A DNA stretch of 47,583 bases from assembly GCA_918285425.1 (NCBI GenBank), contig CAKJZE010000021.1, positions 1 to 47,583 on the forward strand, in the 5' to 3' direction. This stretch comes from Clostridiales bacterium (GTDB taxonomy: Bacteria > Bacillota > Clostridia > Christensenellales > UBA1242). Below the pieces are notes generated by a model. The model was given only the letters and a program-made list of their open reading frames with translations. It ran no database searches and was not told the origin of the DNA. How positions within the stretch are numbered: the stretch's first letter is position 1; every line of letters starts with the position of its first letter. Below are positions 10,854 through 26,346 of the stretch, in pieces. A program made the position numbers and the translations under genes.

Positions 10854-10941
10854 GGAGAGATGGCTGAGCGGTCGAAAGCGGCGGTCTTGAAAACCGTTGA
10901 TGTGCAAGCATCCTGGGGTTCGAATCCCTATCTCTCCGCCA
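10854..10941 (+). tRNA. tRNA-Ser (anticodon UGA), CCA encoded
   Basis: Hand-folded. Acceptor GGAGAGA/TCTCTCC; anticodon stem GCGGT/ACCGT with loop CTTGAAA (anticodon TGA); long variable arm GATG...CATC; T arm TGGGG-TTCGAAT-CCCTA; discriminator G followed by CCA. Confidence 0.92.
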
Positions 10942-12460
10942 TTTGCGAATAATCCGAACCCTTGTGGTTTGGGTTATTCTTTTTTTGTTCAATATATTCA
11001 ATTTCTTTGTCAATAGCAGGTTGGTCTTTAATGTCAAGTTGAGTGCCCTTATCACCAGTTGCATTGTAATAAATTGTCATTGTTCCGTCATCAAAAAGCA
11101 CAACACGATTTACAAACAAATCAATCATTCTTTGTTTTGCCAAAGTGTTGTTTTCGTCTATATCTTTGAAAGAACATAAAAAGTCATAAACCAAATTTTC
11201 ATCAAGTGGTTTAATAATTGTTAATTGTCTAATTGAAATCTTTTCTTGTAGTTCTTTATTATTACTTTCAAGTTCTTTCATTCTTGCATTTGTTGTATCG
11301 TTAAAAACACCATTTTCAAGTGCACGCAAAAGATTTACAAGTTTCTTGTTATTCTCTTGCAATTCTTTATTCAAACTTTCAAGGATTTTGTCTTTTTCAA
11401 TGTCTTTGTTATAAACATTACACATAACTTTTGCAATTGAGTGTAAATTTGTATGTTGCAAAAAATATTTAGTCATAGATATTACTTTTGCTTCTATATT
11501 CTCTTGACTAATAGATTTTTTGTCGCAAATAGACTTGTTCTTTTTCTTTGCAAAGCATTTGTAATAATTGTATATCTTGCCAAGTTTACCTTTGCCACTA
11601 TCTCCTGTCATTAAAGCGCCACATTTGCCACAAATAAGTTTTCCACTTAAAATATAATTAACATCTGTTTTGTGGTGTGCAGAAGTGCGTTTTGAGGCCT
11701 TTAATTTTTCATTAACTTCGTCAAATATTTCGCTATCAATGATTTGTGGGAAAATGTTTGTATAGCAAGTGTCATCAGCAAACACACAACCTTTGTAATT
11801 TGGATTTCTCAAAACTCTTGAAACCGAGTTGATAGTCCATGCCTTGCCATAACTGTTTTTCATGCCTTTGTCTTGCAAAAGTTTGACAATATCTTTAATG
11901 AGCTTGCCACTCAAATATTCATTAAACATAAGGCGAACAATATTTGCTTGTTCTTCATTTATGGAAACTTTTAAATCTTTAACAACATAACCATAAGGAG
12001 TTGGACCACCAGTAAATTGTCCTTTAATTCTGCTTTCTTTAAGCCCACGCTTAACCTTTTGTGATAGTTCGGCAGAATAATACTCTGCAATACTTTCAAG
12101 CATACCTTCCAAAATAATGCCTTCTGGATTATCTGATATTTGTTCGGTTGCAGAAAGAAGTTTAACACCATTTTGCTTTAATATTGCTTTGTTCATAGCA
12201 CTGTCATATCTTGACCTTGCAAATCTATCAAACTTGTAAACCAAAACAAAATCAAAGCCCTTTTTCTTGCTGTCATATAGCATTTGTTGAAGTGCAGGAC
12301 GATTATCATTTGTTCCTGTCATAGCCCTGTCAATATATTCCTTAACAATAACCAAATCATTTCTTTCGGCATATTCTTTACAAACTCTAACTTGACCTTC
12401 AATACTTTGTTCAGTTTGATTGTCGCTTGAATATCTTGCATAAATAACAGCTTTTTTCAT
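10928..12460 (-). CDS. large serine recombinase (integrase type)
   Basis: 510 aa. N-terminal resolvase catalytic domain (AVIYARYSSDNQTEQSIEGQ), a recombinase domain, a Cys-rich zinc ribbon (CGKCGALMTG...YYKC) and a coiled-coil C-terminus. Confidence 0.9.
   Translation of the reverse strand: MKKAVIYARYSSDNQTEQSIEGQVRVCKEYAERNDLVIVKEYIDRAMTGTNDNRPALQQMLYDSKKKGFDFVLVYKFDRFARSRYDSAMNKAILKQNGVKLLSATEQISDNPEGIILEGMLESIAEYYSAELSQKVKRGLKESRIKGQFTGGPTPYGYVVKDLKVSINEEQANIVRLMFNEYLSGKLIKDIVKLLQDKGMKNSYGKAWTINSVSRVLRNPNYKGCVFADDTCYTNIFPQIIDSEIFDEVNEKLKASKRTSAHHKTDVNYILSGKLICGKCGALMTGDSGKGKLGKIYNYYKCFAKKKNKSICDKKSISQENIEAKVISMTKYFLQHTNLHSIAKVMCNVYNKDIEKDKILESLNKELQENNKKLVNLLRALENGVFNDTTNARMKELESNNKELQEKISIRQLTIIKPLDENLVYDFLCSFKDIDENNTLAKQRMIDLFVNRVVLFDDGTMTIYYNATGDKGTQLDIKDQPAIDKEIEYIEQKKNNPNHKGSDYSQMAER
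10947..10987 (+). terminator. Strong Rho-independent terminator immediately after tRNA-Ser
   Basis: A 14-bp stem, gaataatccgaacc (10947-10960) with ggtttgggttattc (10966-10979), loop cttgt, then TTTTTTT. It lies inside the 3' end of the recombinase ORF on the other strand. Confidence 0.75.
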
Positions 12461-12462
12461 TT

Positions 12463-13959
12463 CTATTCTCCTTTATTTCGCTTAATTTTTATCAATTGAG
12501 TATATAATTCAGGGTTTCTATGAACTATAATTGCCAAATTAATCCTAGCCCTTGTAATTCCTTGATAAAATAATTTACTGAAAATATAATCTGGATTAGG
12601 GTGTTCTGGTGAATGCAAACGACCATCAATATATTTGAAATTTTGTCCCATAATCATTACAACGTTATCAAACTCTTGTCCAATAACTACATGTGTATTA
12701 TTCTTACTTACAAATTCATCAATTTCATGTCTTTTAAATAATGATGGTGTAAAACTAATATACTGATAATTAATTGTTTCTAAATATTTTACTAATTCGG
12801 AAGCTTCGTTTTTTGTAGATACATAGTAAATTTTAATATGTTCATAGTTTGCGTCTCTTTTTACTTCTGCTAAATTAACTACATTTTTAATAAATGAAGC
12901 TAAATTATAGTTAGTTCTAATTTTATTTGATAAATGGAATTGTTTCAGCTGAGATAACTTATTTATTTTACCATCTATGTCATTTCTGTTTTCCGATTTT
13001 TGAATTAACTGGTCTGTTCCAATTGAAAATATTGCTTTAACATTGTGCTCTTTTACAAAATCTATTAACATTTGAAATTCAGATATATATAATCTTTGAC
13101 TTTCGTCAATTATAAATAAATCATAATTATTTAATTTGCAATAATTAAATTCTTTTGCTGATATTATATCACAATTTTTCATTTTTTTATTTAATTCAAA
13201 ATGGCCAGAGTTTAGTATCCCTGAATGAACAACACAAATCTTAAAATCTTTAGATAATTTTTTTGCAATATCATAAACCAACAATGTTTTTCCAGTTCCA
13301 GCATCTCCCAATATTTTAAAATATGTAAATTGTTTTCTATTATAGATATCATTAATTATATCATTTTTTATTTGTTGTTGTTGATTAGTTAAAAAATATT
13401 CATTATTTAAAAATTTATCAACATTGTTAAAAGGAGATACTAAATAACAAGCTGGTTTGATAATTTTATCTAAATCATTTTCAAAATAGTTATTGGTCAA
13501 ATTTATTATAGATATAAATTCATTTAAATTGGTTTTTTCAAGTTTTAATTGTTCATTTAATTTATAAAATTCATTATCTTTTGCTACAAAAGTAAAAGAA
13601 TACACCTTGCCTCTAACATTTTTCAAATAATAACTATTTTGGATTAATTGTTTTTCAATCTTCTCTGTTGATGTAAATTCTGATTTTATTTCTATATTTA
13701 AAACATAATCATTCAGTATTTTTATCAAGTCAAATTCTTTAGATATTTGGTCAATGGTATAAGAATAATAGAACCCACTCATATATGCAATATTACATTT
13801 AGAATGCATTAAATCAACCAGTTGATATAAATTTTCTCTTTCATATTCTTTAACTTTTATTTGTCTTTTTGAATTTGTTATACAATTTAAATAATCGTTA
13901 AATTCATCATTGCTTAGTGGTTTTGTTTTAGATAATAAAAACAAATTAATTGGAAACAT
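12463..13959 (-). CDS. PD-(D/E)xK nuclease-like N-domain fused to a P-loop/SF1-helicase-like ATPase (DUF2075-like)
   Basis: EFDLIKI...LNIEIKS (D...ExK); Walker A GDAGTGKT; Walker B LFIIDESQRL; C-terminal YQGITRARINLAII. Its TAG stop lies 2 nt before the recombinase ATG, and the recombinase RBS (AAGGAGAA) sits in its last codons. Confidence 0.7.
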   Translation of the reverse strand: MFPINLFLLSKTKPLSNDEFNDYLNCITNSKRQIKVKEYERENLYQLVDLMHSKCNIAYMSGFYYSYTIDQISKEFDLIKILNDYVLNIEIKSEFTSTEKIEKQLIQNSYYLKNVRGKVYSFTFVAKDNEFYKLNEQLKLEKTNLNEFISIINLTNNYFENDLDKIIKPACYLVSPFNNVDKFLNNEYFLTNQQQQIKNDIINDIYNRKQFTYFKILGDAGTGKTLLVYDIAKKLSKDFKICVVHSGILNSGHFELNKKMKNCDIISAKEFNYCKLNNYDLFIIDESQRLYISEFQMLIDFVKEHNVKAIFSIGTDQLIQKSENRNDIDGKINKLSQLKQFHLSNKIRTNYNLASFIKNVVNLAEVKRDANYEHIKIYYVSTKNEASELVKYLETINYQYISFTPSLFKRHEIDEFVSKNNTHVVIGQEFDNVVMIMGQNFKYIDGRLHSPEHPNPDYIFSKLFYQGITRARINLAIIVHRNPELYTQLIKIKRNKGE

Positions 13960-13979
13960 TTATTCTCCTTATAATATCA

Positions 13980-14124
13980 AAGTGGGTATCCCACTTGTGT
14001 AAGCAAATGGGAGTGGTAAAAAATGCAAAAAGAATTGTTGTTCAAAGTGAGTCACCGGAAACGCTTGTTTTTAGGGGCTTTTTCACTTTGAAAATAGCAT
14101 TTTGAACCTACTCTTATCCTGCTT
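13980..14124 (+). repeat. Left copy of the ~145-nt inverted repeat bracketing the R-M operon
   Basis: Matches the reverse complement of 18901-19046 at roughly 85 percent identity by eye. The outer end is the 17-nt palindrome aagtgggtatcccactt. Confidence 0.9.
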
Positions 14125-14164
14125 GGTAAAATTACACTCATATTATAACGCCAATTTAAGAAAA

Positions 14165-14204
14165 TTGCAACAATTTATTCGCAAATACAAATATTTTGTT
14201 GCAA
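14165..14204. promoter_or_regulatory. Perfect 9-bp inverted repeat (candidate operator for the HTH controller)
   Basis: TTGCAACAA (14165-14173) and TTGTTGCAA (14196-14204) separated by 22 nt. The right arm overlaps the predicted -35. Confidence 0.45.
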
Positions 14205-14227
14205 AATTAAAAATAAAGTAGTATACT
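14199..14227 (+). promoter_or_regulatory. candidate promoter of the R-M operon
   Basis: TTGCAA, 17 nt, TATACT, about 30 nt upstream of the HTH gene. Confidence 0.45.
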
Positions 14228-14256
14228 TATCATAGATTATTTAAAGAGGTCTAAAA

Positions 14257-14457
14257 ATGAGTATTTCGTATAACAAACTTTGGAAACTTTTGATTGATAA
14301 AAATATGACAAAAACAGATTTGAGATTGCAAGCTGATATCGCAACTTCCACTCTTGCTAAACTTAGTAAAAACGAACAAGTAAGCATGGAAGTTTTGCTT
14401 AAAATTTGTAAAACACTAGATTGCGATTTTGATGATATAATTGAGAGGGTTGATTAA
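14257..14457 (+). CDS. small HTH (XRE/Cro-like) protein, likely controller (C) protein of the R-M operon
   Basis: 66 aa (MTKTDLRLQADIATSTLAKLSKNEQVSMEVLLKICKTLDCDFDDII). First gene of the operon; its stop lies 1 nt before the methylase ATG. Confidence 0.75.
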   Translation: MSISYNKLWKLLIDKNMTKTDLRLQADIATSTLAKLSKNEQVSMEVLLKICKTLDCDFDDIIERVD

Positions 14458-14458
14458 T

Positions 14459-15370
14459 ATGTGTAAAGGAATTGCAAAACCATTTTTAAAATGGGCTGGC
14501 GGTAAAGGTCAACTGCTTAACAAGTTTGAAGAGATGTATCCACAGGAACTTATAAATGGCGAAATTGACACATACATTGAACCTTTTGTTGGTGGTGGTG
14601 CAGTTTTATTTGATGTCCTTCAAAAATATAAAATTAAAAAAGTGGTTATTGTTGACTTAAACAAAGAACTTGTAAATTGTTATCGTTGTATTAAAGCCGA
14701 TGTAAATGAACTTATAAAACATCTTAAAACTTTGCAAGATGAATTTTTATCACTGAGTGATGAAAAGAGGAAAGATTATTTCTTAAAAGTTAGAAATAGA
14801 TATAATGAAATTCATCTTAATGGGAAATATGATTTTGAAAAAGCCGCAGATTTCATTTTTTTAAATAAAACTTGTTTTAATGGTCTTTATAGAGTAAATA
14901 GCAAAGGTGAATTTAATGTCCCATTCGGTAAATATAAAAATCCATTGATTTGTGATAGCGAGAATTTAACTCTAATAAGCAAACTTTTACAAAATGTAGA
15001 AATAAGATTTGGAGATTATTCTATTTGTGAAGAATATGTAAATGGAAAAACTTTTATATACTTTGACCCACCTTATCGCCCACTTATAGAAAATTCATCA
15101 TTTGTTGGTTATGATAAATCTGGTTTTAATGATGACAATCAAAAAGAACTGGCTGAATTTGTAAAAAAACTTGATAAGCAAAATTGTTTAGTAATGCTTA
15201 GCAATTCAGATCCTAAAAACACTAATCCTGATGATAATTTCTTTGATGAACTTTACAAAGGATTTCAGATTGATAGAATCTTTGCAAAAAGAATGATAAA
15301 TTGCCAAGCAGATAAACGAGGAGATATAACTGAAATTGTTGTAAGAAATTACAAAAGGAGAAAATTTTAA
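14459..15370 (+). CDS. Dam/DpnM-type N6-adenine DNA methyltransferase (GATC class)
   Basis: PFLKWAGGKGQLL N-terminus, motif I EPFVGGGAV, motif IV FDPPY. The ATG at 14459 is preceded by GAGAGG. Confidence 0.88.
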   Translation: MCKGIAKPFLKWAGGKGQLLNKFEEMYPQELINGEIDTYIEPFVGGGAVLFDVLQKYKIKKVVIVDLNKELVNCYRCIKADVNELIKHLKTLQDEFLSLSDEKRKDYFLKVRNRYNEIHLNGKYDFEKAADFIFLNKTCFNGLYRVNSKGEFNVPFGKYKNPLICDSENLTLISKLLQNVEIRFGDYSICEEYVNGKTFIYFDPPYRPLIENSSFVGYDKSGFNDDNQKELAEFVKKLDKQNCLVMLSNSDPKNTNPDDNFFDELYKGFQIDRIFAKRMINCQADKRGDITEIVVRNYKRRKF

Positions 15371-16249
15371 ATGAGAAGTAAAACAATCAATGTTTTCTTA
15401 ATGGACGGAGACCCTACTTGCAAAATAAAATGCACATTGCAAAATTGGACTGGAATAGCTTATAAAATTCCAAGAACAATGCTAGAAGATTGCAAAGAGG
15501 GAGAAAAAGATATAGTTAAACATTTAAAACAGACAGGAATTTATTTTCTATTAGGAGAAGATTCCAATACAGGAAATAAAGCAATTTATGTTGGACAAGC
15601 TGTTTCTAGGAAAAATGGCGAAGGATTACTTTGTAGATTATTAGAACATAAAAGGAATATGAAGGAAAAATATTGGAATGACTGGAATGAAGTTATAGTT
15701 TTTACAACTCAAAATGATTCATTTGGTCCAACAGAAATTAGTTACCTTGAAAATAAATTTACTAATCTTGCTAGAAGTGCTGGAAGATATGAAGTAAAGA
15801 ATGGTAATGAGCCTAACCCAGGTAATATCACAGAAGAAAAAGAAAGTGAACTTTTAGAATATGTGGATTATGCTCGAATTATTATAGGAATGCTTGGACA
15901 TAAAGTTTTTGAACAATTAGTAAAATCAAATCCTCTTACGAATAAAGTTGATAGCCCTATCTTCTATTTTAAAGGCAAAATAAAAGCAACTGGCATTTTT
16001 ACCAATGAAGGTTTTGTCGTATTAAAAGGTTCTTCAATAAGTCCCAAGTTAAATCCAAGTGCACATAAATTCACAATTAAAGCAAGAGAAATGAACAAAA
16101 ACAAAATAGATGAAAATTATATTTTATTAGAAGATGTTTTGTTTACAAGCCCATCAGCAGCAGCCGGATTTGTAGGCGGTTCAAGTTTAAGTGGAAATGC
16201 AATGTGGGTAACAAGTTATGGCAAATCACCAAAAGATGTCGAATTATAA
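15371..16249 (+). CDS. GIY-YIG nuclease domain protein with a C-terminal DUF4357-like domain
   Basis: GIYFLLG...IYVGQA...RLLEH...ISYLE (GIY-YIG). C-terminal FVVLKGS...SPSAAAGFVGGSSLSGNAMW is recalled as the DUF4357 signature. Its ATG directly abuts the methylase stop. Confidence 0.7.
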   Translation: MRSKTINVFLMDGDPTCKIKCTLQNWTGIAYKIPRTMLEDCKEGEKDIVKHLKQTGIYFLLGEDSNTGNKAIYVGQAVSRKNGEGLLCRLLEHKRNMKEKYWNDWNEVIVFTTQNDSFGPTEISYLENKFTNLARSAGRYEVKNGNEPNPGNITEEKESELLEYVDYARIIIGMLGHKVFEQLVKSNPLTNKVDSPIFYFKGKIKATGIFTNEGFVVLKGSSISPKLNPSAHKFTIKAREMNKNKIDENYILLEDVLFTSPSAAAGFVGGSSLSGNAMWVTSYGKSPKDVEL

Positions 16250-16265
16250 AACATAGGAGAACATT

Positions 16266-17123
16266 ATGAAAAGAAATTTTAAAGAATGGTTAAATGATTT
16301 CACAGATAGTATTGCAACTTATGAATACTACACCGAATTTAATATAGTTTATAAAAACATTGATAAACTTAAAGTTGAACTTAACATTATGAATTCTCTT
16401 ATTGGTTCAAAGAATATTGAACAGGATTTTGATAATCTTTTCAAAAAATATCCAGAGATAAGGAAATGTTTGCCACTTCTTATTGCTGTTAGAGAAAATG
16501 AAATTAAAGTTATTGATGAAGGCGAAAAACTTAAATACAACTTCAAAACAATAGATGATATTGATTTACTAAAAAGGTTTATGAGAAAAACTGGGCTTTT
16601 TGACTTAATATCAAATCATTTAGTAAACAATCTTGTCGATTACACTACTGGAGTTGAAGTTGGACTTGGCTCAAATGGAAGAAAAAATCGTGGTGGACAT
16701 CTAATGGAAGATGTATTGCAAGGATATATTGAAAAAGCTGGATTTGTAAAAAATCAAACATATTTCAAAGAAATGTATTTGAGTGATATTGAGAAAAAAT
16801 GGAATATTGATTTATCAAAACTTTCTAATCTTGGCAAGGTAGCAAAAAGATTTGATTATGTTGTAAAAACAAAAAATTGTATTTATGCCTTTGAAACAAA
16901 CTTCTATTCAAGCAATGGCTCAAAATTAAATGAAACTGCAAGAAGCTATAAAATGCTTGCTGAAGAAAGTAAATATATTAAAGGATTTGCTTTTGTTTGG
17001 GTTACTGATGGTTTAGGTTGGCAAGGCGCTAAAAATAATCTTGAAGAAACATTTGATGTTTTAGATAACATCTTCAATCTAAAAGAATTGGAACAAGGTA
17101 AATTAAAGGAAATATTAAAATAA
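16266..17123 (+). CDS. DpnII/MboI-family type II restriction endonuclease (GATC)
   Basis: Long blocks match my recollection of R.DpnII: LNIMNSLIGSKNI, LVDYTTGVEVGLGSNGRKNRGG, GSKLNETARSYKM, WVTDGLGWQGAKNNLEETFD. Confidence 0.85.
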   Translation: MKRNFKEWLNDFTDSIATYEYYTEFNIVYKNIDKLKVELNIMNSLIGSKNIEQDFDNLFKKYPEIRKCLPLLIAVRENEIKVIDEGEKLKYNFKTIDDIDLLKRFMRKTGLFDLISNHLVNNLVDYTTGVEVGLGSNGRKNRGGHLMEDVLQGYIEKAGFVKNQTYFKEMYLSDIEKKWNIDLSKLSNLGKVAKRFDYVVKTKNCIYAFETNFYSSNGSKLNETARSYKMLAEESKYIKGFAFVWVTDGLGWQGAKNNLEETFDVLDNIFNLKELEQGKLKEILK

Positions 17124-17842
17124 TGCAAGAAGAATTTGAACTTGAAACTAACACCGTTTGGAGTTTTCCTAATCGTGGCAAATGGGCAACACATGATGCA
17201 AAATATCGTGGGAATTTTTCGCCCTATGTAGCAAAAAATATAATTTTGAGGTATTCACAACCAAACGATTATGTGTTAGATCAATTTGTTGGTGGTGGCA
17301 CCACTCTTGTCGAATGTAAGTTAAACAATAGAAATGCTATTGGAATTGATATAAACCCTAAAGCTGTTGAATTAACAAAAGAAAAACTTAATTTTGATTG
17401 CAATTTTTCAAACAATATAGAAGTTCAACTTGGCGATGCTTGTAACTTAAAAAATATTGATGACAATAGTATTGATTTAATTTGCACTCATCCACCTTAT
17501 GCAGACATTATCAAATATAGTGATGATATTGATGGCGATTTATCTCACTTAAAATACAAAGAGTTCTTGACTGCAATTGAAAAAGTTGCTAGTGAATGTT
17601 ATAGAGTGCTTAAAAAAGACAAATTTTGTGCTATTGTTATGGGAGATACTAGAAAAAAAGGCATGGTGCAACCACTTGGTTTTGAAGTTATGCAAAGATT
17701 TGTAAATGCCGGCTTTAAACAAAAAGAAATAATTATAAAAGAACAACACAATTGTAAAGCAACAGGTTTTTGGAAAACAAATAGTCAAAAATTTAATTTT
17801 TTACTTTTAGCACATGAATATATTTTTATATTTAAAAAATAA
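17123..17842 (+). CDS. second DNA methyltransferase (motif order X-I-IV, gamma-like)
   Basis: WSFP...THDAKYRGNFSPYVAKNIILRYSQPNDYVLDQFVGGGTT (motifs X and I), then CTHPPYADI (motif IV with His in the usual D/N/S position). Its start overlaps the endonuclease stop by 1 nt. Confidence 0.75.
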   Translation: MQEEFELETNTVWSFPNRGKWATHDAKYRGNFSPYVAKNIILRYSQPNDYVLDQFVGGGTTLVECKLNNRNAIGIDINPKAVELTKEKLNFDCNFSNNIEVQLGDACNLKNIDDNSIDLICTHPPYADIIKYSDDIDGDLSHLKYKEFLTAIEKVASECYRVLKKDKFCAIVMGDTRKKGMVQPLGFEVMQRFVNAGFKQKEIIIKEQHNCKATGFWKTNSQKFNFLLLAHEYIFIFKK

Positions 17843-17850
17843 GGAGAATT

Positions 17851-18894
17851 ATGGAGAAGAAATTTTCAAGTTCAAAAGGCCTTTCAAAATCGTTAATGTT
17901 TGAATGGGTGGTTCGAAGAATACTTGAAGAACAGTATGTTGTCAATACAGTGGATCAAACTTTAAATGGATTCGATTTAAAAACTGTTGATAATATCAAT
18001 ATAGAAATAAAATATACAACAAGAAGCAACTTGTTGAGTTTTGTAAATTCTTTAAAGTTTTTTATAGAAACTCATCCAAATTACGCACTCGAACGAATAA
18101 TTTTTATAACAAGTTCTATTTGTGAAGATGTATTTTCTAATCAAAATAAAAGTGATGAAGTTAAATCACTTAACATTATTTCATTGGAAAATCTAATCTA
18201 TTTATGTAAAGATAATGATAATTTACTATCTCAATTAAAAATGTGTTTAAATTTTTCAACAGAAAATATAAAACCAATACCTCTTGATGAAAACGTTCAA
18301 AAATTATTACAACCTTCAAAAAAAGAAAACTTTAAAAAAGTTGAGAATATTGATTATTATAATAAATTAATATCAATTCCTCATGGCCGAAATCATTTTT
18401 CGCAATATGAAAAATTCTGTGAGGATTTTATTAAAACCATTTTTCAAGATAATATTGAGGACCCTATTCCACAAAAAATTAACAATCAAGGCTTATATAG
18501 GTTTGATTTAGTAGCAGCATTAAAATCAGAAGCAAAAAGTTTTTGGAAATTTATATACGATAAATATAATTCATGTTTCATTTTGTTTGATTGCAAAAAT
18601 TATACAGGGACAATTGAACAAGAAGAAATTTATTCAACAGAGAGATATTTATATAATAATGCTTTAAGAAATGTAGGTATTATACTATCCAGAAAAGGGG
18701 CTTCTCTTCATGCCAAAATTGCCTGCCAAGGTATTCTTAAAGAACATGGCAAATTAATATTAGTTCTTGATGACAATGATATGAAAGAATTAGAAATCTT
18801 ATATAAAAATAATAAAAAAGGCATTGACTACCCGACTCCATCAGATTTTTTATTTGATAAGGCAAAAGACTTTTTGTTAAATTTAGACAAATAA
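17851..18894 (+). CDS. hypothetical protein with two PD-(D/E)xK-like motifs (restriction-endonuclease-like)
   Basis: GFDLKTVDNINIEIKY near the N-terminus and YRFDLV...FILFDCKNY in the C-terminal half. AAGGAG RBS. Last gene of the operon, ending 6 nt before the right inverted repeat. Confidence 0.5.
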   Translation: MEKKFSSSKGLSKSLMFEWVVRRILEEQYVVNTVDQTLNGFDLKTVDNINIEIKYTTRSNLLSFVNSLKFFIETHPNYALERIIFITSSICEDVFSNQNKSDEVKSLNIISLENLIYLCKDNDNLLSQLKMCLNFSTENIKPIPLDENVQKLLQPSKKENFKKVENIDYYNKLISIPHGRNHFSQYEKFCEDFIKTIFQDNIEDPIPQKINNQGLYRFDLVAALKSEAKSFWKFIYDKYNSCFILFDCKNYTGTIEQEEIYSTERYLYNNALRNVGIILSRKGASLHAKIACQGILKEHGKLILVLDDNDMKELEILYKNNKKGIDYPTPSDFLFDKAKDFLLNLDK

Positions 18895-18900
18895 AATAGT

Positions 18901-19046
18901 AAGCAGGATAAGAGTGGATTCAAAATGCCATTTTCAAAGTAAAAAAGTCCCTAAAAACAATAGTTTCCAGTGACTCACTTTGAACAACAATTCCTTTTGG
19001 CATTTTTACCCACTCCCTTTTTAGCAAGCAAGTGGGATACCCACTT
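18901..19046 (-). repeat. Right copy of the ~145-nt inverted repeat bracketing the R-M operon
   Basis: Reverse complement of 13980-14124. The outer palindrome aagtgggatacccactt (19030-19046) is followed here by a T-run, so on the plus strand it doubles as a terminator for the operon. Confidence 0.9.
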
Positions 19047-19171
19047 CTTTTTTTATATAAACTAGTGAAAATTTTTAATTTATATGTTATAATATGAACG
19101 GCACTTATCCGAGAGTGCCACGGATTAAAGTCAATTGTTGCTATATGCTTTTTGTATAATGCAAAAAGTGT

Positions 19172-19411
19172 ATGAAGAAAACAATTGATGAACAATGTTT
19201 TATTGATTGTGTAAATATAGATGAAAACACTGCTACTTACAACTTTAACACAAAAATATTAAAGCAAGGCAAAGTAAATATGTCCCAAAAGCAAATAAAC
19301 CATATCGGTTCTATTCTTGCAACTGACTTAAAAAACTTTGCAGAAAGTAATGGCGACTTTTCAAATCTAACAGCAAATGAAGTTTATACTCATTTGTTGG
19401 ATAATCAATAA
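19172..19411 (+). CDS. hypothetical 79-aa protein (gene X)
   Basis: No clear Shine-Dalgarno sequence. Its last 10 codons recur at 22493-22522 with only synonymous differences, which supports real coding. Confidence 0.5.
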   Translation: MKKTIDEQCFIDCVNIDENTATYNFNTKILKQGKVNMSQKQINHIGSILATDLKNFAESNGDFSNLTANEVYTHLLDNQ

Positions 19412-19511
19412 ACATTGCAAAGAAGAAGTTGAAAAAACTTCTTCTTTTTTTTGTTAGACTCTATAAATTTCTATTTAATTGTGCTATAATGATAATTAGT
19501 GAGGAGCACAT
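19370..19511 (+). repeat. 5' junction element, copy a (gene X 3' end + terminator + promoter + RBS)
   Basis: Aligns collinearly with 22481-22621 at about 70 percent identity by eye, up to the start codon of the downstream gene. Confidence 0.75.
19421..19452 (+). terminator. Terminator after gene X
   Basis: agaagaagtt-gaaaa-aacttcttct followed by a T-run. Confidence 0.75.
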
Positions 19512-21683
19512 ATGATTAATAAAATTGAGTTAAACAATATTGCTACATATAAGCATTGTGAAATATATCCTAAAAAAATTAATTATATTTATGGAGGTAA
19601 TGGCACAGGCAAAACTTCAATATCAAAATTTTTAGCAAATCCAGTAAATTATCCTACAAGCAATTTGACCACAGAAAATTATCCAATTGATATACTTGTA
19701 TATAATAAAGACTTTATAGAAGATAATTTTGATAAGGATAAATCAATAAAGGGAATATTTACAATTGGAGAAGAAAATAAAGAAATAGAAGAAAATATAA
19801 ACAAATTGTTAATAAAAAAAGAAGAAATCGAAAAACAAAAAACTATACGCATTAATAAAATTGAAGAATTTACCGAGAATGCAAAAACCTTGCATAACGA
19901 ATTTTGTAATAATTGTTGGACAATAAAAAAAGTTGCAGAACCATATAAAAAATCTATAAGTGGTGTTTTAAATTCTAGAGAAGCATTTGCCGAAATGTGC
20001 GATAAGAACTTTTTAAATACAAAAACAACGACAGAACTTGGTTCATTTGATGAAAGATACAAAATGCTATATGAGACACATATGCAAGTATATAATAAGT
20101 TTTCAGAATTAGAATTTACAAGATTATCTGAAATTGAAAACAATTCTCTATTAAATAAAAGTATCATAGCAAAGGAAGATAATCCACTGTCGTCTATAAT
20201 TCAAAAGTTAAACAATAGTGACTGGATTAAACAAGGTGTAGAATATTTAGATAGCACTCATAACATTTGCCCATTTTGTCAAAGAGAACTAACAGCCAAA
20301 ACGATAAAGGATTTAGAGAATTTATTTGATGAAGAATATGACAAAAATATGAATGAATTAAAAACACTAAACGATGAATATCAGAAATTATCAAATAGTT
20401 TAATTCTCAATATGGAAAATGTTGCTCAAACTTCTTATCAAATATTAGATTATTCAGGCATAAGTACATTATTATTAGAAATAAAGTCTGTAATAAAAGA
20501 CAATATAAAGCTTTTAAATGATAAAATAAAGTTTCCTTCAAATAAGATTGAATTAAATAAAACTAATAATTTATTGAACCAAATAAATTCTGTGATTAAA
20601 GAATACAATAGAATAATTAAAAGAAATAATGAACTATCTTCTAAGCAATTACAAGAAAAGAATAAGTTAAGCAATGATATATGGCAAGCGATTTCAAATA
20701 ATTATCTTTATGAAACCATAAATGAATATAGGAAAAAGAGTGAAGGAATTAAATCTGCGACTCATAAAATGATGATGGAAAGAGACTCTTATGCTCAAGA
20801 CATTGCCGAAATAGAAATAGAGATTAACAATTTGCAATCCAAAGTATCTACTATTGACAACGCGATTAATGAAATAAATAAAATATTAAAAGGGTTTGCT
20901 TTTACAGGTTTTTATTTGCGTAAAGCTAAAGATAATAGAAATTATGAAATAATTCGCGAAGATGGGAGTAATGCAAAAGATACATTAAGTGAGGGTGAAG
21001 AACGTTTTATTACATTTCTCTATTTTATTCAATTAATAAATGGCAATGTAGAAAATAAAAGAACAATAAATAAAAAAGTTGTAGTAATAGATGACCCCAT
21101 TTCAAGTCTTGATAGCAATATTATATTTATTGTAAGTTCTCTTGTAAAAGAGATTATAAACAATTGCATCAATAGCAACAATTTAATAGATCAAGTTATA
21201 GTATTAACACATAACATCTATTTTCATCATCAAATTAGTTTCAGACCAAAAAGTAATCAATTGTCACCTAATTTGTTTTCATTTTTTACAATCCATAAAA
21301 AAGATAATCTTTCAACAATTGAACAATCTCAAAAGAATTTGATTCAAACATCATATGAACTTTTATGGCAGGAAATAAAGCAGCCAGAAATAACAAGTAG
21401 GGCTAATATATTCAACTCAATGAGAAGAATTTTAGAATATTATTTTGATATTATTGGTGGGTTAGACTATGATAATCTTATATCTACATTTACCGGCGAA
21501 GACAAAATTATTTGTAATTCTTTAATTTCTTTTGTAAATGCTAATTCACATTCTATTGCAGATGATTTTGTTATTGGATTTAGTGAAGAAGATATAGACA
21601 AATATTTAGTTGTCTTTAAAAAAATATTTATTAATAGTAATCATAAAGCACATTACGAAATGATGATGTCTAGAGAATACTAA
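19512..21683 (+). CDS. RloC/PrrC-like anticodon nuclease (AAA_13-type ABC-like ATPase with zinc-hook coiled coil)
   Basis: Walker A GGNGTGKTS; long Lys/Glu/Asn-rich coiled coil containing CPFC; LSEGEERF signature; Walker B VVVIDDPISSLD; LTHN; C-terminal MRRILEYYF ... NANSH, resembling the PrrC Arg-Glu-His nuclease triad. Confidence 0.7.
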   Translation: MINKIELNNIATYKHCEIYPKKINYIYGGNGTGKTSISKFLANPVNYPTSNLTTENYPIDILVYNKDFIEDNFDKDKSIKGIFTIGEENKEIEENINKLLIKKEEIEKQKTIRINKIEEFTENAKTLHNEFCNNCWTIKKVAEPYKKSISGVLNSREAFAEMCDKNFLNTKTTTELGSFDERYKMLYETHMQVYNKFSELEFTRLSEIENNSLLNKSIIAKEDNPLSSIIQKLNNSDWIKQGVEYLDSTHNICPFCQRELTAKTIKDLENLFDEEYDKNMNELKTLNDEYQKLSNSLILNMENVAQTSYQILDYSGISTLLLEIKSVIKDNIKLLNDKIKFPSNKIELNKTNNLLNQINSVIKEYNRIIKRNNELSSKQLQEKNKLSNDIWQAISNNYLYETINEYRKKSEGIKSATHKMMMERDSYAQDIAEIEIEINNLQSKVSTIDNAINEINKILKGFAFTGFYLRKAKDNRNYEIIREDGSNAKDTLSEGEERFITFLYFIQLINGNVENKRTINKKVVVIDDPISSLDSNIIFIVSSLVKEIINNCINSNNLIDQVIVLTHNIYFHHQISFRPKSNQLSPNLFSFFTIHKKDNLSTIEQSQKNLIQTSYELLWQEIKQPEITSRANIFNSMRRILEYYFDIIGGLDYDNLISTFTGEDKIICNSLISFVNANSHSIADDFVIGFSEEDIDKYLVVFKKIFINSNHKAHYEMMMSREY

Positions 21684-21792
21684 CTATTGTTTTCACCCAC
21701 CCAGCGCCTACAAATATTCTAGGGTTAGGATTGGATTGCGCCCGCTCCGCCAATCGTAACCTAAATCGAACCACTCGATTTGGGTTTATTTT
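21684..21792 (+). repeat. 3' junction element R1 (conserved ~65-nt core + private terminator hairpin)
   Basis: Starts at the stop codon of 19512-21683. Core ...CCACCCAGCGCC..TAGGGTTAGGATTGGAT..GCTCCGCCA. Hairpin 21758-21769/21775-21786 followed by a T-rich tail. Confidence 0.85.
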
Positions 21793-21812
21793 ATATCTTA
21801 GGGGGTATTTCG

Positions 21813-22433
21813 ATGTATCATTTTGGTGTACTTGTTAGTGAAAATTAAAAGCTTACGAGAGAAAAATACATAAATTATTATAAAGAAAATAAGCAGCAAT
21901 TTACATTAGAAGATATTCTTTACAACTATGATCTTAATATTGATTATTACAATAATCTTAATAAAGTAGATTTTGATAAAGAATTAAATAGGTTTTTCAA
22001 TAAGTTTAAAAGATTTAGAGAAATATATGATTTACAAGAATGCAATTGTGACGGTTTTTATATAATGATTTTGGATAATTATAAGCAAGTATATATTGGT
22101 ATTGCTGATAATATTAAGAAACGTATTTTACAGCATTGGAAAAACAGTCCTAATACTATGATTGTTGGCACAAAAAACAACTCTAAATTATGCATCGATT
22201 CTTTCAAAGCATTGGATACAACAAGAATTTTTGTCTATACAAATGAACAATTTGCAATTAACGTAAGAAATGCTAATCTGATTATGGAAGATGAAAAAAA
22301 TAGTCATTTAATAAAACACGTTTCAGAAACCTTGGAAGATGAAGAAAATAAAATGATTAAATATTTTAACAACAAATATACATGTAATAGATTTGCACGA
22401 CTAATCATGAAATCATTCTATAGAGATTTTTAA
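21813..22433 (+). pseudogene. GIY-YIG nuclease gene interrupted by an in-frame TAA at 21846-21848
   Basis: AGGGGG RBS, then ATG at 21813 encoding MYHFGVLVSEN, then TAA. The same frame then stays open for 195 codons, through GFYIMILDNYKQVYIGIADNIKKRILQHW (GIY...YIG...R...H). There is no ATG/GTG/TTG between 21849 and the ATG at 22065, and that ATG lies inside the GIY motif. Confidence 0.7.
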
Positions 22434-22480
22434 AAATTTATTATTTGTCCAATTTTTAATTATTGTATTTATTAAAAACA

Positions 22481-22621
22481 ACAACAAATAAAGTTTATAC
22501 TCACTTGCTAGACAATCAATAAACACTGCAAAAGGAAGAACTTGAAATATAGTTCTTCCTTTTTTGTTTTCACTATGGACATTTAACTAAAAATATTGTA
22601 TAATAATTTTAGGAGATAATT
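22481..22621 (+). repeat. 5' junction element, copy b (relic of the gene X C-terminus + terminator + promoter + RBS)
   Basis: 22493-22522 encodes VYTHLLDNQ-stop, as in gene X. An upstream in-frame TAA at 22457 shows that only a relic remains. Terminator ggaagaact-tgaaatat-agttcttcc and a TATAAT box follow. Confidence 0.75.
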
Positions 22622-22981
22622 ATGAAAGATTTAAATTATAAAAGAGTAATTGCATATGCCAATTATTTGGTTTTATTTGTTGATGATGAAGATAGACAAT
22701 CCAAGATTATAGCAAAACTAAAAGAATATAATGACAAACTGCCTGATGGTAAACTAATAGATAAATTACAAAACAAATATTTATCTAAAAAAAATGATTA
22801 TTTTGAGATTGCAGAATTTTTATTGAAAGACATTGAAAAAACAAAGAATAAGGACAAATATTTGCCAACTATTCAACAATTATTAAAAGATATAGAAGAT
22901 ATTATTAACCCAAAAGATACCACTACTAAAATTGAAAGAAGTCCAGCCCAAAAGATTTCGGACTTATCAAGTTGGAGTTAA
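22622..22981 (+). CDS. hypothetical protein (119 aa)
   Basis: AGGAG RBS. Charged, helical-looking sequence with no recognised motif. Confidence 0.55.
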   Translation: MKDLNYKRVIAYANYLVLFVDDEDRQSKIIAKLKEYNDKLPDGKLIDKLQNKYLSKKNDYFEIAEFLLKDIEKTKNKDKYLPTIQQLLKDIEDIINPKDTTTKIERSPAQKISDLSSWS

Positions 22982-22982
22982 T

Positions 22983-23483
22983 ATGAAAAAAGGATGGAGA
23001 ATTGTAATATTAGTTGTTTGCATTCTTATAGCTATAGCAATACCAGTAATAACTATCATTCACTATTACAACATTGATATTGCTAGCATTTGGTCAACAT
23101 GGGGATTGCAAGAAGATAATACAACGATAAATTTGCCAGATACTGTAAACTACATAAAGCTATTATGGTATAAAAGTTCAATTTATATTGTTCCGCCAAT
23201 TTTCATTTTTATTGGATTAACTATCTTAAATCATAAACAAATAAACCTTAAAAAAAAGTGGTATTTTTATCTAATCCAAGGCTTTTCATTTTGGTATATA
23301 TCATTGCTTATGATTAAATTATTTTGTAATGAGATTTTGGAGTTAGATAGATGTTATAATATAACCTTCTTTAATGGTATAGAATCAATGCAATTACTTG
23401 TTGGTTATATAGTTTCGTTTATATTAAAAAGCAATATAGAATTAAACAAACCATATAGTGATGAAGTTAAAAAATTGAAATAA
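22983..23483 (+). CDS. hypothetical membrane protein (about 4 TM segments)
   Basis: The ATG at 22983 lies 1 nt after the upstream stop and is preceded by GGAG. Hydrophobic segments include IVILVVCILIAIAIPVITII, IYIVPPIFIFIGLTIL and FYLIQGFSFWYISLLMI. Confidence 0.6.
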   Translation: MKKGWRIVILVVCILIAIAIPVITIIHYYNIDIASIWSTWGLQEDNTTINLPDTVNYIKLLWYKSSIYIVPPIFIFIGLTILNHKQINLKKKWYFYLIQGFSFWYISLLMIKLFCNEILELDRCYNITFFNGIESMQLLVGYIVSFILKSNIELNKPYSDEVKKLK

Positions 23484-23590
23484 CTATTTTTAGCCACCCA
23501 GCACCAACATATATTTTAGGGTTAGAATTGGATAGCGTTGTTCTCGCCAAGCATAACGTAAATCTTATGAACTATGATTTGCGTTTTTTG
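23484..23590 (+). repeat. 3' junction element R2
   Basis: Begins at the stop codon. Core CCACCCAGCACC..TAGGGTTAGAATTGGAT..TTCTCGCCA. Hairpin 23555-23564/23576-23585 followed by a T-run. Confidence 0.85.
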
Positions 23591-23671
23591 TTTTTTAATA
23601 ATAAAGTAATTATACAATAAAATACTGAATTTAGAAATGTTTTATCATGTGGTAAACTTAAAACTTAATTA

Positions 23672-23700
23672 TTGACAAATTGCTAAAAATCCTGTAAAAT
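23672..23700 (+). promoter_or_regulatory. candidate promoter
   Basis: TTGACA, 17 nt, TAAAAT. Confidence 0.5.
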
Positions 23701-23726
23701 TTAAGTTGATATAAGGATAAAAGAGT

Positions 23727-24113
23727 ATGGATAGAAACGAGACTGAACCTATCGCAAAGGATTTGATAGATAAAGCAAGAGAGCTGATGAAAGATGTTAA
23801 TGTTACATTTGATGAAGATTTTTGGGCTTATACAGCATTTGATAGAAAATGGAGACGTAAACCTGAATTTTGCTGTGGCAAAAAGAAAGAGTTGCTTGAC
23901 CAAATTTATGATGTAATAGGCAATTTGGACTACAATTCAACAATACATCTATTTGCACATATAACATCTGCTGAAATTGCTGCAGAACTACAAATGAAAG
24001 CTAAAGACGGATGGAAAAATCCTGCTGCACTCGATAAAAAAGCGTGTATATTATTGAGAAATGTGCGATCAAAAGTTGAATACGAAAAGAGCGAAACAAA
24101 TATAAAAATTTAA
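23727..24113 (+). CDS. hypothetical protein (128 aa)
   Basis: AAGGA RBS. No recognised motif. Followed by junction element R3. Confidence 0.55.
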   Translation: MDRNETEPIAKDLIDKARELMKDVNVTFDEDFWAYTAFDRKWRRKPEFCCGKKKELLDQIYDVIGNLDYNSTIHLFAHITSAEIAAELQMKAKDGWKNPAALDKKACILLRNVRSKVEYEKSETNIKI

Positions 24114-24222
24114 AATTTTATTTAACCAAACCACTACCGATATATATTTGGGTGTTAGAAATGGATAACATCGGCTCCGCCAGAAATTGTCTAAACATTC
24201 TATGTTTGTACAATTTTTTTTA
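24114..24222 (+). repeat. 3' junction element R3 (most diverged copy)
   Basis: Core CCAAACCACTACC..GGGTGTTAGAAATGGAT..GGCTCCGCCA. Hairpin 24186-24198/24202-24214 followed by T8. Confidence 0.75.
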
Positions 24223-24278
24223 TAAGTGATTTTTAATATATTTAATTGAGGTATATAATTTTGGAAACAAAAATTAAG

Positions 24279-24734
24279 ATGAAAAATAAAGTGGGGCAAT
24301 ATGGCGTCATAAACAAAACTGGAAAAATTGGCAGTTCTGCTGTATTGTACAAAACTACAGATCCCGAATTTTGGAAAAATATAGAAAAGGGTATAAAATC
24401 ATCTGTAAAATCCGTAATTAATATTGGCTATGAAACATATAGTTCATGCCAAGGCCATAGAGGTACATTATATAATAAAAGGACTTTAACCGTTATTTTG
24501 TCAAATGAAGAAATAGATATTTGGATTTATTTTTTAGATACTTTAAATATTTTCTTTTTGACAGATCATCCAATTACATATCTTTTAATTCCAAAAAGTG
24601 ATAACAAAACAAATATCATGATTAATTTTGGAGATATTGAAAACAAAAAATGTGTAAAAATTAATCAGAAATATTTTAATAAGTTTGTGACAGTAATAAA
24701 TAAGCTCAAATTTGTTTGCGATGATATTTCTTGA
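24279..24734 (+). CDS. hypothetical protein (151 aa) upstream of the radical SAM gene
   Basis: ORF only. The start is uncertain (track start 24246 is non-ATG) and the RBS is weak. No motif recognised. Confidence 0.4.
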   Translation: MKNKVGQYGVINKTGKIGSSAVLYKTTDPEFWKNIEKGIKSSVKSVINIGYETYSSCQGHRGTLYNKRTLTVILSNEEIDIWIYFLDTLNIFFLTDHPITYLLIPKSDNKTNIMINFGDIENKKCVKINQKYFNKFVTVINKLKFVCDDIS

Positions 24735-24759
24735 CTAAATGTATCAGATGATGTATAAT
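24731..24759 (+). promoter_or_regulatory. near-consensus sigma-70 promoter for the radical SAM gene
   Basis: TTGACT (24731-24736), exactly 17 nt, TATAAT (24754-24759). Confidence 0.65.
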
Positions 24760-24785
24760 GTTACTGTTGTATTTGAGGATAAAAT

Positions 24786-25895: not shown

Positions 25896-25926
25896 TTTTT
25901 TTTAAAATGAAAAACATATAAATCAG

Positions 25927-25956
25927 TTGACAAAATGATAGTTTTAATGGTAAACT
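25927..25956 (+). promoter_or_regulatory. candidate promoter in front of the precursor genes
   Basis: TTGACA, 18 nt, TAAACT, about 20 nt upstream of an AAGGAG RBS. Confidence 0.5.
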
Positions 25957-25978
25957 TTGCAAGTAAGGAGAAGAAATT

Positions 25979-26143
25979 ATGTTTAGTATTAAAAATTTAA
26001 TTAAAAAATATAAAAAGCAATCATTAAAATTAGCGTATGCATATAATGATAGTGGAAAACACACAGATCACGAAGATCATATCGATCATGATACACGTTT
26101 GGGTCACGTTGATCATGATGATCATACGGATTGGACTGATTAA
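25979..26143 (+). CDS. 54-aa putative RiPP precursor peptide 1 (His/Asp-rich core); not in the ORF track
   Basis: AAGGAG 7 nt upstream of the ATG. Product: MFSIKNLIKKYKKQSLKLAYAYNDSGKHTDHEDHIDHDTRLGHVDHDDHTDWTD. Its leader is shared with the next ORF. Confidence 0.7.
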   Translation: MFSIKNLIKKYKKQSLKLAYAYNDSGKHTDHEDHIDHDTRLGHVDHDDHTDWTD

Positions 26144-26174
26144 TTTCAAAATATTACATTATGGAGAACTTACT

Positions 26175-26300: not shown

Positions 26301-26346
26301 TATAATAATTTGGAATTGTTATAACAATAAAATCAAAAATAAATAT

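Follow-up and report, generated by a model that had tools for sequence, protein, structure and literature searches.

A mosaic DpnII-family restriction-modification operon carrying two putative accessory nucleases

Are the two additional nuclease-like genes in a six-gene DpnII-family restriction-modification (R-M) operon parts of the restriction system, or do they travel with it as accessory genes? The question is raised by positions 14257-18894 of a 47,583-nucleotide (nt) stretch of DNA from a Clostridiales bacterium (GenBank assembly GCA_918285425.1, contig CAKJZE010000021.1), which was analysed at its full length and is called the window here. We propose that the locus is one mosaic operon in which a GATC restriction system under a controller protein is joined by two accessory nucleases that act independently, a reading that we consider probable while leaving real room for doubt. 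From sequence comparison we document the mosaic structure of the operon, the slot-like behaviour of its junctions, the association of one extra gene (p3) with R-M systems, the independent distribution of the other (p6), and a family-wide HPPY motif in the second methylase. The six genes are as follows.

14257-14457, plus strand: helix-turn-helix (HTH) protein of 66 amino acids (aa), Cro/C1-type (Pfam HTH_26, E=1.8e-19)
14459-15370, plus strand: M1, Dam/DpnM-class N6-adenine DNA methyltransferase, presumed to act on GATC (MethyltransfD12, TIGR00571 dam, PADLOC MTase_II)
15371-16249, plus strand: p3, GIY-YIG-like and DUF4357 protein (PADLOC PDC-S14, Pfam DUF4357)
16266-17123, plus strand: R, DpnII-family Type II endonuclease, presumed cutter of unmethylated GATC (Pfam DpnII, PADLOC REase_II)
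17123-17842, plus strand: M2, 239-aa permuted amino-methyltransferase (split N6_N4_Mtase match, PADLOC PDLC03376)
17851-18894, plus strand: p6, 347-aa protein with two tandem restriction-endonuclease-like domains (alignment, structure model, Foldseek)

The initial annotation had listed these six plus-strand open reading frames (ORFs) in this order, with gaps of 1, 0 and 16 nt, a 1-nt overlap and a gap of 8 nt. The ORF list agrees throughout, giving stop-to-start distances of +1, 0, +16, -1 and +8 nt, and the domain identities named there are borne out by our profile searches, alignments and models. M1 starts with the ATG at 14459; an in-frame TTG is also present at 14441. Every downstream start has a Shine-Dalgarno sequence within or just past the preceding gene. 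The M1/p3 junction reads AAAAGGAGAAAATTTTAA followed directly by ATG, within a conserved M1 3' end of the form ...AAAAGGAGAAAAT(TT)TAA and then ATG; the p3/R junction reads TAGGAGAACATT followed directly by ATG; R and M2 overlap in TAATG (-1 nt); and the M2/p6 junction, TAAGGAGAATTATG, is identical in a related locus, L082. A promoter scan placed a promoter-like site, TTGCAA-17-TATACT, at 14199-14227 on the 5' side of the block, and an intrinsic terminator (hairpin 19030-19046 plus T-run, to 19056) lies on its 3' side. No convincing terminator was found by the terminator scan within the six-gene block. Its sole internal candidate, a hairpin at 18017-18036 in p6, was called on both strands, is probably due to chance, and was set aside. 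Co-transcription of the six genes with translational coupling is the natural reading of this layout, because tight junctions and Shine-Dalgarno placement are combined with a promoter-like site at the 5' end, a terminator at the 3' end and no convincing terminator between them. The tight coupling claimed at the outset thus holds.

The central genes are of a familiar kind. M1 matches Pfam MethyltransfD12 (PF02086, 4.1e-63), TIGR00571 dam (8.5e-86, above that model's cut-off of 114.85 bits) and PADLOC MTase_II (6e-96). R matches Pfam DpnII (PF04556, 1e-101) over residues 4-281, against profile positions 1-277 of 278, and PADLOC REase_II (2e-94). By these endonuclease and Dam-class methylase matches the core is a DpnII-family Type II R-M system in M-R-M order, as initially described. 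The MboI genes are likewise arranged M-R-M.

The second methylase departs from this familiar pattern. M2 matches N6_N4_Mtase (1.9e-32) with the profile split into two swapped, or permuted, pieces, and matches PADLOC MTase_II PDLC03376 (6.6e-111). Its motif I (FVGGGTT), at residue 55, precedes its motif IV, THPPY, at residues 122-126. The structure 2zie (motif TSPPY) in the Protein Data Bank (PDB) aligns to M2 as two swapped pieces, and that of DpnA (5hek) aligns over motif I only. Because of this motif order and these two alignments, M2 is best described as a circular permutation of the beta-class N6_N4 enzymes. Assignment as a DpnA-type methylase, in which a DPPY motif IV comes before an FxGxG motif I, was rejected: the motif order is reversed and HPPY stands in place of DPPY. 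True DpnA-type methylases were found in two of the relatives described below (L105, L117). The initial annotation had called THPPY unusual. It is so against the textbook (D/N/S)PP(Y/F), but within the M2 family it is the norm: among 150 representatives at 50% identity, 131 align across the motif, and 124 of these have His before PPY (Gln in 6). By this count the His is a trait of the family and no peculiarity of the window's gene. A literature search for an HPPY methyltransferase motif returned irrelevant matches only. The HPPY-type permuted domain was also seen in many fusion proteins of 300-550 aa and inside giant proteins of 1,100-2,100 aa (P0299, P0306, P0311, P0330, P0334, P0347 and P0350 among the long-protein representatives).

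How firmly do the two extra genes belong to this core? A metagenome scan with R yielded 35 loci, in which genes were located by tblastn and ORF extraction and then annotated with Pfam and PADLOC; the related loci were drawn from metagenome-assembled genomes of gut Clostridia. In 12 of them, the close relatives, R is 84-95% identical to that of the window. The position between M1 and R in these 12 loci holds p3 in four, an Mrr_cat protein in two, other unrelated genes in five, and only a 68-aa ORF in one. Together with the more distant loci, its contents are as follows.

p3: L093, L099, L107, L121
280-aa Mrr_cat/PDC-S02 protein: L092, L094; also the more distant L102, L116
Unrelated protein of 440 aa: L089 (M1, R and M2 proteins 95% identical to those of the window)
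217-221-aa protein of unnamed kind: L096, L098
174-aa 2TM/PycTM-like protein: L095
115-aa protein: L119
68-aa ORF only: L090
DpnA-type methylase, giving the classical dpnM-dpnA-dpnB order: L105, L117 (more distant)
No insert, M1 and R overlapping or about 10 nt apart: L101, L106, L108, L114 (more distant)

The 3' end of M1 reads ...AAAAGGAGAAAATAA(A)TG irrespective of the gene that follows, and each insert supplies its own ribosome-binding site, 13-16 nt upstream of the R start codon. By this comparison the M1-R position is a variable slot, with constant flanking genes and constant coupling signals. A second slot lies between R and M2, where three loci hold proteins of about 180 aa (L090:2501-3046, L099:5867-6412 and L109:5887-6423), a family with no Pfam match and a weak PADLOC SpbK match only. 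In L103 and L110, genes related to this family were also seen in the M1-R gap, on the opposite strand. The gene that follows M2 in DpnII-type relatives is, where annotated, CBASS (SAVED plus cyclase), GmrSD, an OLD/Gabija-like ATPase, SIR2, a reverse transcriptase, KwaB, PDC-S19 or DUF3800. The pattern may extend to another restriction specificity. In the IceA/NlaIII-type operon L082, the M1-R position holds a 377-aa protein (L082:3453-4586) with weak EVE and weak PDC-S02 matches, apparently a Type IV-like passenger at the corresponding position. Because slot contents vary while the flanking genes and coupling signals stay constant, exchange most likely proceeds by homologous recombination in conserved flanks, namely M1 and R for the first slot and the 3' end of M2 for the last.

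The wider company of p3 points the same way. A scan of one genome per species supplied the p3 loci, of which the best 80 were retained. The closest p3 relatives (62-93% identity) reproduce the window's gene arrangement. The order M1-p3-R-M2 is found in seven loci (L002, L004, L007, L008, L093, L099, L107) and, as far as the contig reaches, in three more (L006, L043, L121); L067 has R-p3. In L001, which holds the closest p3 relative of all (93%), the order is M1-p3-X-M2 and the DpnII endonuclease is replaced by a 179-aa weak PDDEXK_11 match (L001:8897-9436), either a different endonuclease for the same site or a sign that R was lost. Elsewhere p3 keeps other partners. Its co-directional upstream neighbours (n=62) include 21 ResIII/HsdR-type proteins, 6 D12 methylases, 3 YgjP-like proteins, 2 McrBC and 1 DpnII, and Type I R-subunit domains occur in 12-13 of the 62. 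Confirmed orders with p3 in last place are hsdM-hsdS-hsdR-p3, hsdR-YgjP-p3 and helicase-mod-res-p3. A single-seed search of low sensitivity placed an R-M-like gene within 8 kb in 40 of the 80 p3 loci; where the locus spans 12 kb or more, the figure is 25 of 41. Members of the family usually come last in Type I or Type III operons, and one subclade stands between M1 and R of DpnII-type operons. Since many of the other surveyed loci place it after Type I or Type III genes, p3 is, judged by its neighbourhoods, a passenger of adenine-methylating R-M operons in general, be they Type I, Type III or DpnII-type, and no DpnII-specific component.

What kind of protein p3 is can be read from its layout. 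A small beta domain occupies residues 1-50 at the N-terminus; a GIY-YIG-like nuclease domain follows at about 55-137 and is joined by a helical linker to the C-terminal domain (about 195-292), which contains DUF4357. DUF4357 itself is matched by Pfam at residues 244-286 (E=7e-12). The protein matches PADLOC PDC-S14 (PDLC04925, 4.4e-95) almost end to end, residues 1-291 against profile positions 13-295 of 301. The p3 family comprises 6,373 clusters at E<=1e-3, and p3 is 52-93% identical across phyla, with the non-nuclease domains conserved as well. In an alignment of 25 homologues, G56-I-Y58, Y73-V-G75 (with x at the middle position), R80, R89 and E127-N128 are invariant. An AlphaFold2 model (predicted local distance difference test, pLDDT, 86) has a beta-beta-alpha-beta-alpha unit at residues 56-137, with predicted strands at 56-63, 70-77 and 105-112 and helices at 86-95 and 120-137. 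Foldseek against viral structures (BFVD) returned, as best matches, phage GIY-YIG homing or intron-associated endonucleases, weakly (E 5e-3 to 0.1), and NCBI labels p3 homologues "GIY-YIG nuclease family protein". Sequence searches of the PDB with p3, with the p3 profile and with a profile of its C-terminal domain gave nothing meaningful, and that domain has no sequence match to the MPND structures there. The evidence that p3 carries a GIY-YIG-like nuclease domain, as initially annotated, is indirect but consistent, resting on the invariant motif pattern, the modelled core, the viral matches and the naming of its homologues; its DUF4357 is supported directly by Pfam.

DUF4357 is found fused to the Type IV enzymes GmrSD and McrB (PMC4619093, PMC5714182, PMC11090510). 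GIY-YIG/URI-RAMA fusions have been flagged as candidate modification-reading restriction enzymes and are uncharacterised (PMC4738411, PMC11037411), and the RAMA concept itself was defined through association with adenine methylases (PMC4738411). In its architecture, a nuclease plus DUF4357, p3 resembles Type IV enzymes, yet its gene usually lies within an R-M operon; a reader role for DUF4357 is putative. PDC-S14 is a bioinformatic candidate family, and our literature search found no experimental characterisation of it; the papers found to name it appear to be surveys of genomes or of phage resistance.

The last gene, p6, has a different history. The 347-aa protein was initially credited with two PD-(D/E)xK-like motifs, and both are upheld by conservation and by modelling. 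Its Mrr-like N-terminal domain carries D42 and E52-x-K54, and its C-terminal domain carries D219, E247-x-K249 and Q257xxxY. Across 50 homologues, D42, E52-x-K54, E187, R217-x-D219, (E/D)247-x-K249 and Q257 are invariant or nearly so. In the model (pLDDT 87.8, predicted template modelling score 0.85) two alpha-beta-beta-beta-alpha-beta units bear the motif residues, with D42, E52 and K54 on strands 43-45 and 50-54, and D219, E247 and K249 on strands 216-224 and 243-249. The best Foldseek matches in the PDB (E 2e-3 to 0.1) are all restriction-endonuclease-like: the Rpb5 N-domain, EndoMS/NucS, N.BspD6I, EcoT38I and AF1548. A sequence search of the PDB with p6 gave nothing meaningful, and p6 itself has no match in Pfam (E<=0.01, including Mrr_cat), NCBIfam or PADLOC. 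Mrr_cat (PF04471) is matched in the aligned N-terminal region of homologues that are 28-35% identical; the C-terminal domain has no Pfam model. The initial annotation had called both extra genes nuclease-like, with no demonstrated role in this R-M family, and the domain evidence for p3 and p6 agrees.

The p6 family is small. It comprises 84 homologous clusters (90% identity), almost none of them named, and a profile search meant to enlarge the family or tie it to a named one stayed at 95 unnamed clusters. Relatives add TIR_2, HNH, GGDEF, DEAD/ResIII helicase or C5-methylase domains. The two closest relatives (72-78%) are the last genes of operons composed of HTH_26, a D12 methylase, in part an EVE-like gene, an ICEA endonuclease and an N6_N4 methylase, and the M2 of these IceA-type operons is of the same HPPY type, 36-37% identical to the window's. 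DNA homology with one of them, L082, begins about 45 nt before the M2 stop and spans p6 and the downstream element. Homologues that are 45-48% identical, and those fused to TIR or helicase domains, are solitary genes on conjugative or integrative elements. By tblastn, p6 was found in none of the 35 R loci and 80 p3 loci, nor after M2 in any other DpnII-type operon examined. Because of these IceA-type and solitary contexts, the junction homology with L082 and the absence from other DpnII operons, p6 is, on comparative grounds, a rare stand-alone nuclease family recombined onto the operon end. Linkage of the extra genes to DpnII-type operons in other genomes is accordingly split: p3 recurs in the same arrangement, and p6 does so in none of the loci surveyed. 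The initial reading is partly upheld; the idea of a dedicated six-gene expansion of the DpnII/MboI system is not supported, given the varying contents of the M1-R slot, the more frequent residence of p3 with Type I and Type III genes, and the absence of p6 from the other DpnII operons surveyed.

We propose the following mechanism. The HTH protein would bind an inverted-repeat operator at the -35 element and control the operon. M1, of the Dam class, would methylate GATC, R would cut GATC that is unmethylated, and M2, as a permuted HPPY-type amino-methyltransferase, would give a second protective methylation, roles that we infer from family membership. Both extra proteins would be expressed from the same transcript, p3 from between the M1 stop and the ribosome-binding site of R, and p6 from directly after M2. 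In this scheme p3 would be a separate restriction nuclease, its DUF4357 steering the GIY-YIG domain to foreign DNA whose modification evades the methylation-sensitive R. Because host DNA carries GATC with N6-methyladenine (G-m6A-TC), p3 could not attack that mark itself. p6 would act alone as a nuclease effector and belong to a rare defence family of single genes, and neither p3 nor p6 would be a subunit of the DpnII-type enzyme.

Several observations weigh against this proposal. The functions of p3, p6 and M2 are read from domains and gene context. At a threshold as loose as E<=5, Pfam detected no GIY-YIG domain in p3 or 24 homologues; a Foldseek search of the PDB with p3 gave no match, for which the multidomain query model is probably the cause; and RAMA (PF18755) weakly matches only two of 17 C-terminal domains of the p3 family, with a best E of 0.0019. 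The tie of p3 to adenine-methylating R-M systems of three types could mean that p3 depends on the methylation of host DNA. No sensor domain can be recognised in p6, and in three operons it travels with a near-identical HTH gene, possibly because the two are functionally tied. In addition, the 80 p3 loci and the 35 R loci were picked by sequence similarity and provide no unbiased census.

Functional dependence on the R-M enzymes is the main rival. It would make the operon an integrated, multilayer system in which p3, p6 or both depend on these enzymes, either as a PrrC-like guard unleashed by an anti-restriction protein or through m6A as a self signal read by DUF4357. We think this unlikely, and treat it seriously since the link between p3 and adenine methylation keeps it alive. 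The Type I, Type III and DpnII-type partners of p3 are all adenine-N6 methylating, in keeping with the adenine-methylase association by which RAMA was defined (PMC4738411); p3 is translationally coupled to both M1 and R; and M1-p3-R-M2 is kept across relatives in which M1 identity is only 49-91%. PrrC shows that a guard can reside within an R-M operon (PMC12707154), and p6 recurs at the end of two-methylase operons whose HTH is about 90% identical. This rival is weakened by slot turnover, in that unrelated genes occupy the same slot of near-identical operons. Half of the p3 loci lack an R-M-like gene within the 8 kb covered by the single-seed search, with its limited sensitivity, and the R-M enzymes that do accompany p3 share no common protein surface. 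Furthermore, p3 is retained in L001 despite the replaced DpnII endonuclease, and most p6 relatives are solitary.

The patchy presence of inserts at an identical intergenic site in close relatives also fits selfish passengers, that is, homing-endonuclease-like or addiction-type nuclease genes lodged in operon junctions with no defence benefit to the host. GIY-YIG is the classic free-standing homing fold, the best structural matches of p3 are phage homing endonucleases, and the operon lies on a mobile island. Yet we regard this reading as quite improbable, and a homing endonuclease in particular is unlikely because non-homing genes (Mrr_cat, 2TM-like, methylase) use the same slot and p3 occurs at many unrelated loci, such as after hsdR and res, unlike a site-specific homing enzyme. 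The strong conservation of p3 across phyla, non-nuclease domains included, and the framing of the inserts by host-type translational-coupling signals also speak against it. Least credible of all is host protection, in which p3, p6 or both would be repair or restriction-alleviation nucleases for self-inflicted GATC breaks or stalled complexes, an idea encouraged by the GIY-YIG (URI) domains of the repair enzymes UvrC and Cho and by YgjP/SprT-like peptidases, suggestive of DNA-protein complex repair, that sometimes lie between hsdR and p3. Against it stand the absence of repair-type partner domains, the fusion of DUF4357 otherwise to Type IV restriction enzymes (PMC4619093, PMC11090510), the uniformly defensive island context, and the TIR and HNH effector domains of p6 relatives.

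Our preferred reading, of two independently acting accessory nucleases, also has a bolder extension, which we offer as a speculation with the odds well against it. Here a clade of two-methylase Type II operons would serve as an expression chassis with fixed, coupled slots between M1 and R, between R and M2 and after M2, into which effectors are swapped through flank recombination, making the operon a defence hotspot. The GIY-YIG-DUF4357 protein, the commonest passenger, would be a restriction nuclease of a new type that reads adenine methylation or hypermodification and takes host m6A in any context as its self signal, and p6 would be the founder of a new single-gene defence family.

The surroundings of the operon bear on its control and its mobility. 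The features outside the six genes are as follows.

10854-10941: tRNA-Ser, adjoining the serine recombinase
10928-12460: large serine recombinase, adjoining tRNA-Ser
12463-13959, minus strand: AbiO/Nhi-like helicase-nuclease (PADLOC 1e-139)
13980-14124, minus strand: left arm of the 145-nt inverted repeat; it duplicates the operon's 3' element and ends in hairpin AAGTGGGATACCCACTT
14165-14204, no strand: operator-like inverted repeat TTGCAACAA-N22-TTGTTGCAA, unique in the window, 0 expected by chance
18901-19056 (repeat to 19046), plus strand: right arm of the 145-nt inverted repeat, 3' element and terminator, starting 6 nt after the p6 stop
19172-19411, plus strand: 79-aa ORF, conserved downstream in L093, L094, L096 and L097
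19512-21683, plus strand: AAA_13/PDC-S06 protein (PADLOC PDC-S06 8e-231) with PrrC/RloC-like ATPase similarity (PADLOC PrrC 8e-13)

The HTH protein is 89-92% identical to the first gene product of the NlaIII/IceA-type operons L081 and L082, and 70-85% identical in DpnII-type relatives; it is a probable C-protein-like controller of the operon. The operator-like repeat is kept upstream of the HTH gene in seven loci of DpnII and IceA type (L081, L082, L093, L094, L096, L099, L121). Each half of it has a palindromic TTGCAA that forms the -35 of one of two divergent promoter-like sites, at 14199-14227 on the plus strand (-10 TATACT) and at 14170-14142 on the minus strand (-10 TATAAT). The seven loci with preserved operator half-sites also share the minus-strand -10, which reads ATTATA on the plus strand. 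The HTH protein probably binds this operator over the -35, and it may co-regulate the R-M operon and the divergent AbiO/Nhi-like gene.

The two arms of the 145-nt repeat, complementary over 110 nt at 89% and over 53 nt at 81%, bracket the six-gene block exactly, and recombination between them would invert the whole operon. Both end in the hairpin AAGTGGGA(T/A)ACCCACTT, without a T-run in the left copy. The left arm likely lies in the 5' leader of AbiO/Nhi, because its hairpin ends 20 nt before the AbiO/Nhi start codon at 13959. L001, L081 and L082 each have one copy of the 3' element, downstream of the operon, and a homologous copy lies upstream of AbiO in L094 as well. Structural support within the element is confined to the terminator stem, and Rfam, run on the whole window and permissively on 13900-19500, left the repeat arms unmatched. 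A small ORF in the arms (27-32 aa, ...IVVQSES...FFTLKxAF) was considered and rejected: its start has an indel between the arms, four of six substitutions change the amino acid, and the product of the L082 copy would be another one.

The operon looks to sit in an integrative defence island of low guanine-cytosine (GC) content. No att-type direct repeat of the tRNA-Ser end of at least 13 nt was found, and megablast of the six-gene block against plasmid and phage collections gave no match. GATC sites number 3 in the operon against 11.5 expected, and 23 against 45-47 in the island (10900-30000); in the chromosomal flanks they are near expectation (25 against 28, and 44 against 44). These counts suggest that the mobile element, not this host, was exposed in the past to GATC restriction. 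Further along the low-GC island, 22065-28830 holds small plus-strand ORFs without a Pfam match (122, 119, 183, 128 and 162 aa), a radical SAM protein at 24786-25895 and then ORFs of 218 aa (minus strand), 120 and 437 aa; this stretch could be a further defence or peptide-modification cluster. A bacterial large signal recognition particle RNA was seen at 44783-45046 on the minus strand (Rfam, 139.9 bits); like the gut-Clostridia origin of the related loci, it agrees with a Bacillota (Clostridia-like) host.

How does this operon compare with known systems? It shares with DpnII (S. pneumoniae dpnM-dpnA-dpnB) and MboI a DpnII-family endonuclease, a Dam/DpnM-class methylase and a second methylase, and with the pneumococcal dpn locus the character of an exchangeable cassette with conserved flanks. 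It differs from them in its added 5' HTH controller; in an M2 that is not DpnA-type, with permuted motifs and HPPY instead of DPPY; and in two extra coupled nuclease genes. Its GATC specificity is presumed, with the depletion of GATC in operon and island as indirect evidence. p3 resembles the PDC-S14 family in its full-length match, its DUF4357 and its adenine-methylating R-M locus, but in most members the gene closes the operon after hsdR or res; p3 and one subclade instead lie inside a Type II operon in the M-R gap. Equivalence of its DUF4357 to the RAMA of described fusions (Iyer et al. 2016; Helbrecht et al. 2024) is only hinted at by that best E of 0.0019.

Accessory defence genes embedded in R-M loci have precedents (PMC12707154). 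Like PrrC in the Type IC system EcoprrI, and BrxU/GmrSD in Type I and BREX loci, p3 and p6 are embedded and, as predicted here, co-expressed. Unlike in EcoprrI, the host operon is Type II, the embedded genes are of DNase type (GIY-YIG, PD-(D/E)xK) and not anticodon nucleases (ACNases), no NTPase or HEPN/ACNase domain is found in p3 or p6 by Pfam and PADLOC, and the slot content turns over between close relatives. p6 resembles Mrr/Mrr_cat Type IV enzymes in that its N-terminal domain aligns with Mrr_cat homologues and both of its domains keep D...(D/E)xK; like Mrr-type and single-gene nuclease defence proteins, its family occurs on mobile elements and in defence islands, with TIR, HNH or helicase N-terminal additions in some members. 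It differs from Mrr in a second, C-terminal nuclease-like domain with a RecB-like QxxxY and no Pfam model, in having no recognisable modification-reader domain, and in the very small size of its family (about 95 clusters at 90% identity).

In the literature we came across no small Type II operon described as having precisely placed slots that are exchangeable and translationally coupled. The components are of known kinds, namely a DpnII R-M system, a PADLOC candidate gene and PD-(D/E)xK nucleases; what seems new is the presence of such slots in a Type II operon, together with the p6 and HPPY methylase families. The locus points to a widespread GIY-YIG-DUF4357 family (more than 6,000 clusters), to a rare tandem PD-(D/E)xK family whose C-terminal domain has no Pfam model, and to a large family of DNA methyltransferases with permuted order and the HPPY motif. 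If the proposal is confirmed, near-identical operons that differ only in their embedded gene would provide a compact natural experiment on independence, guarding or mark-reading.

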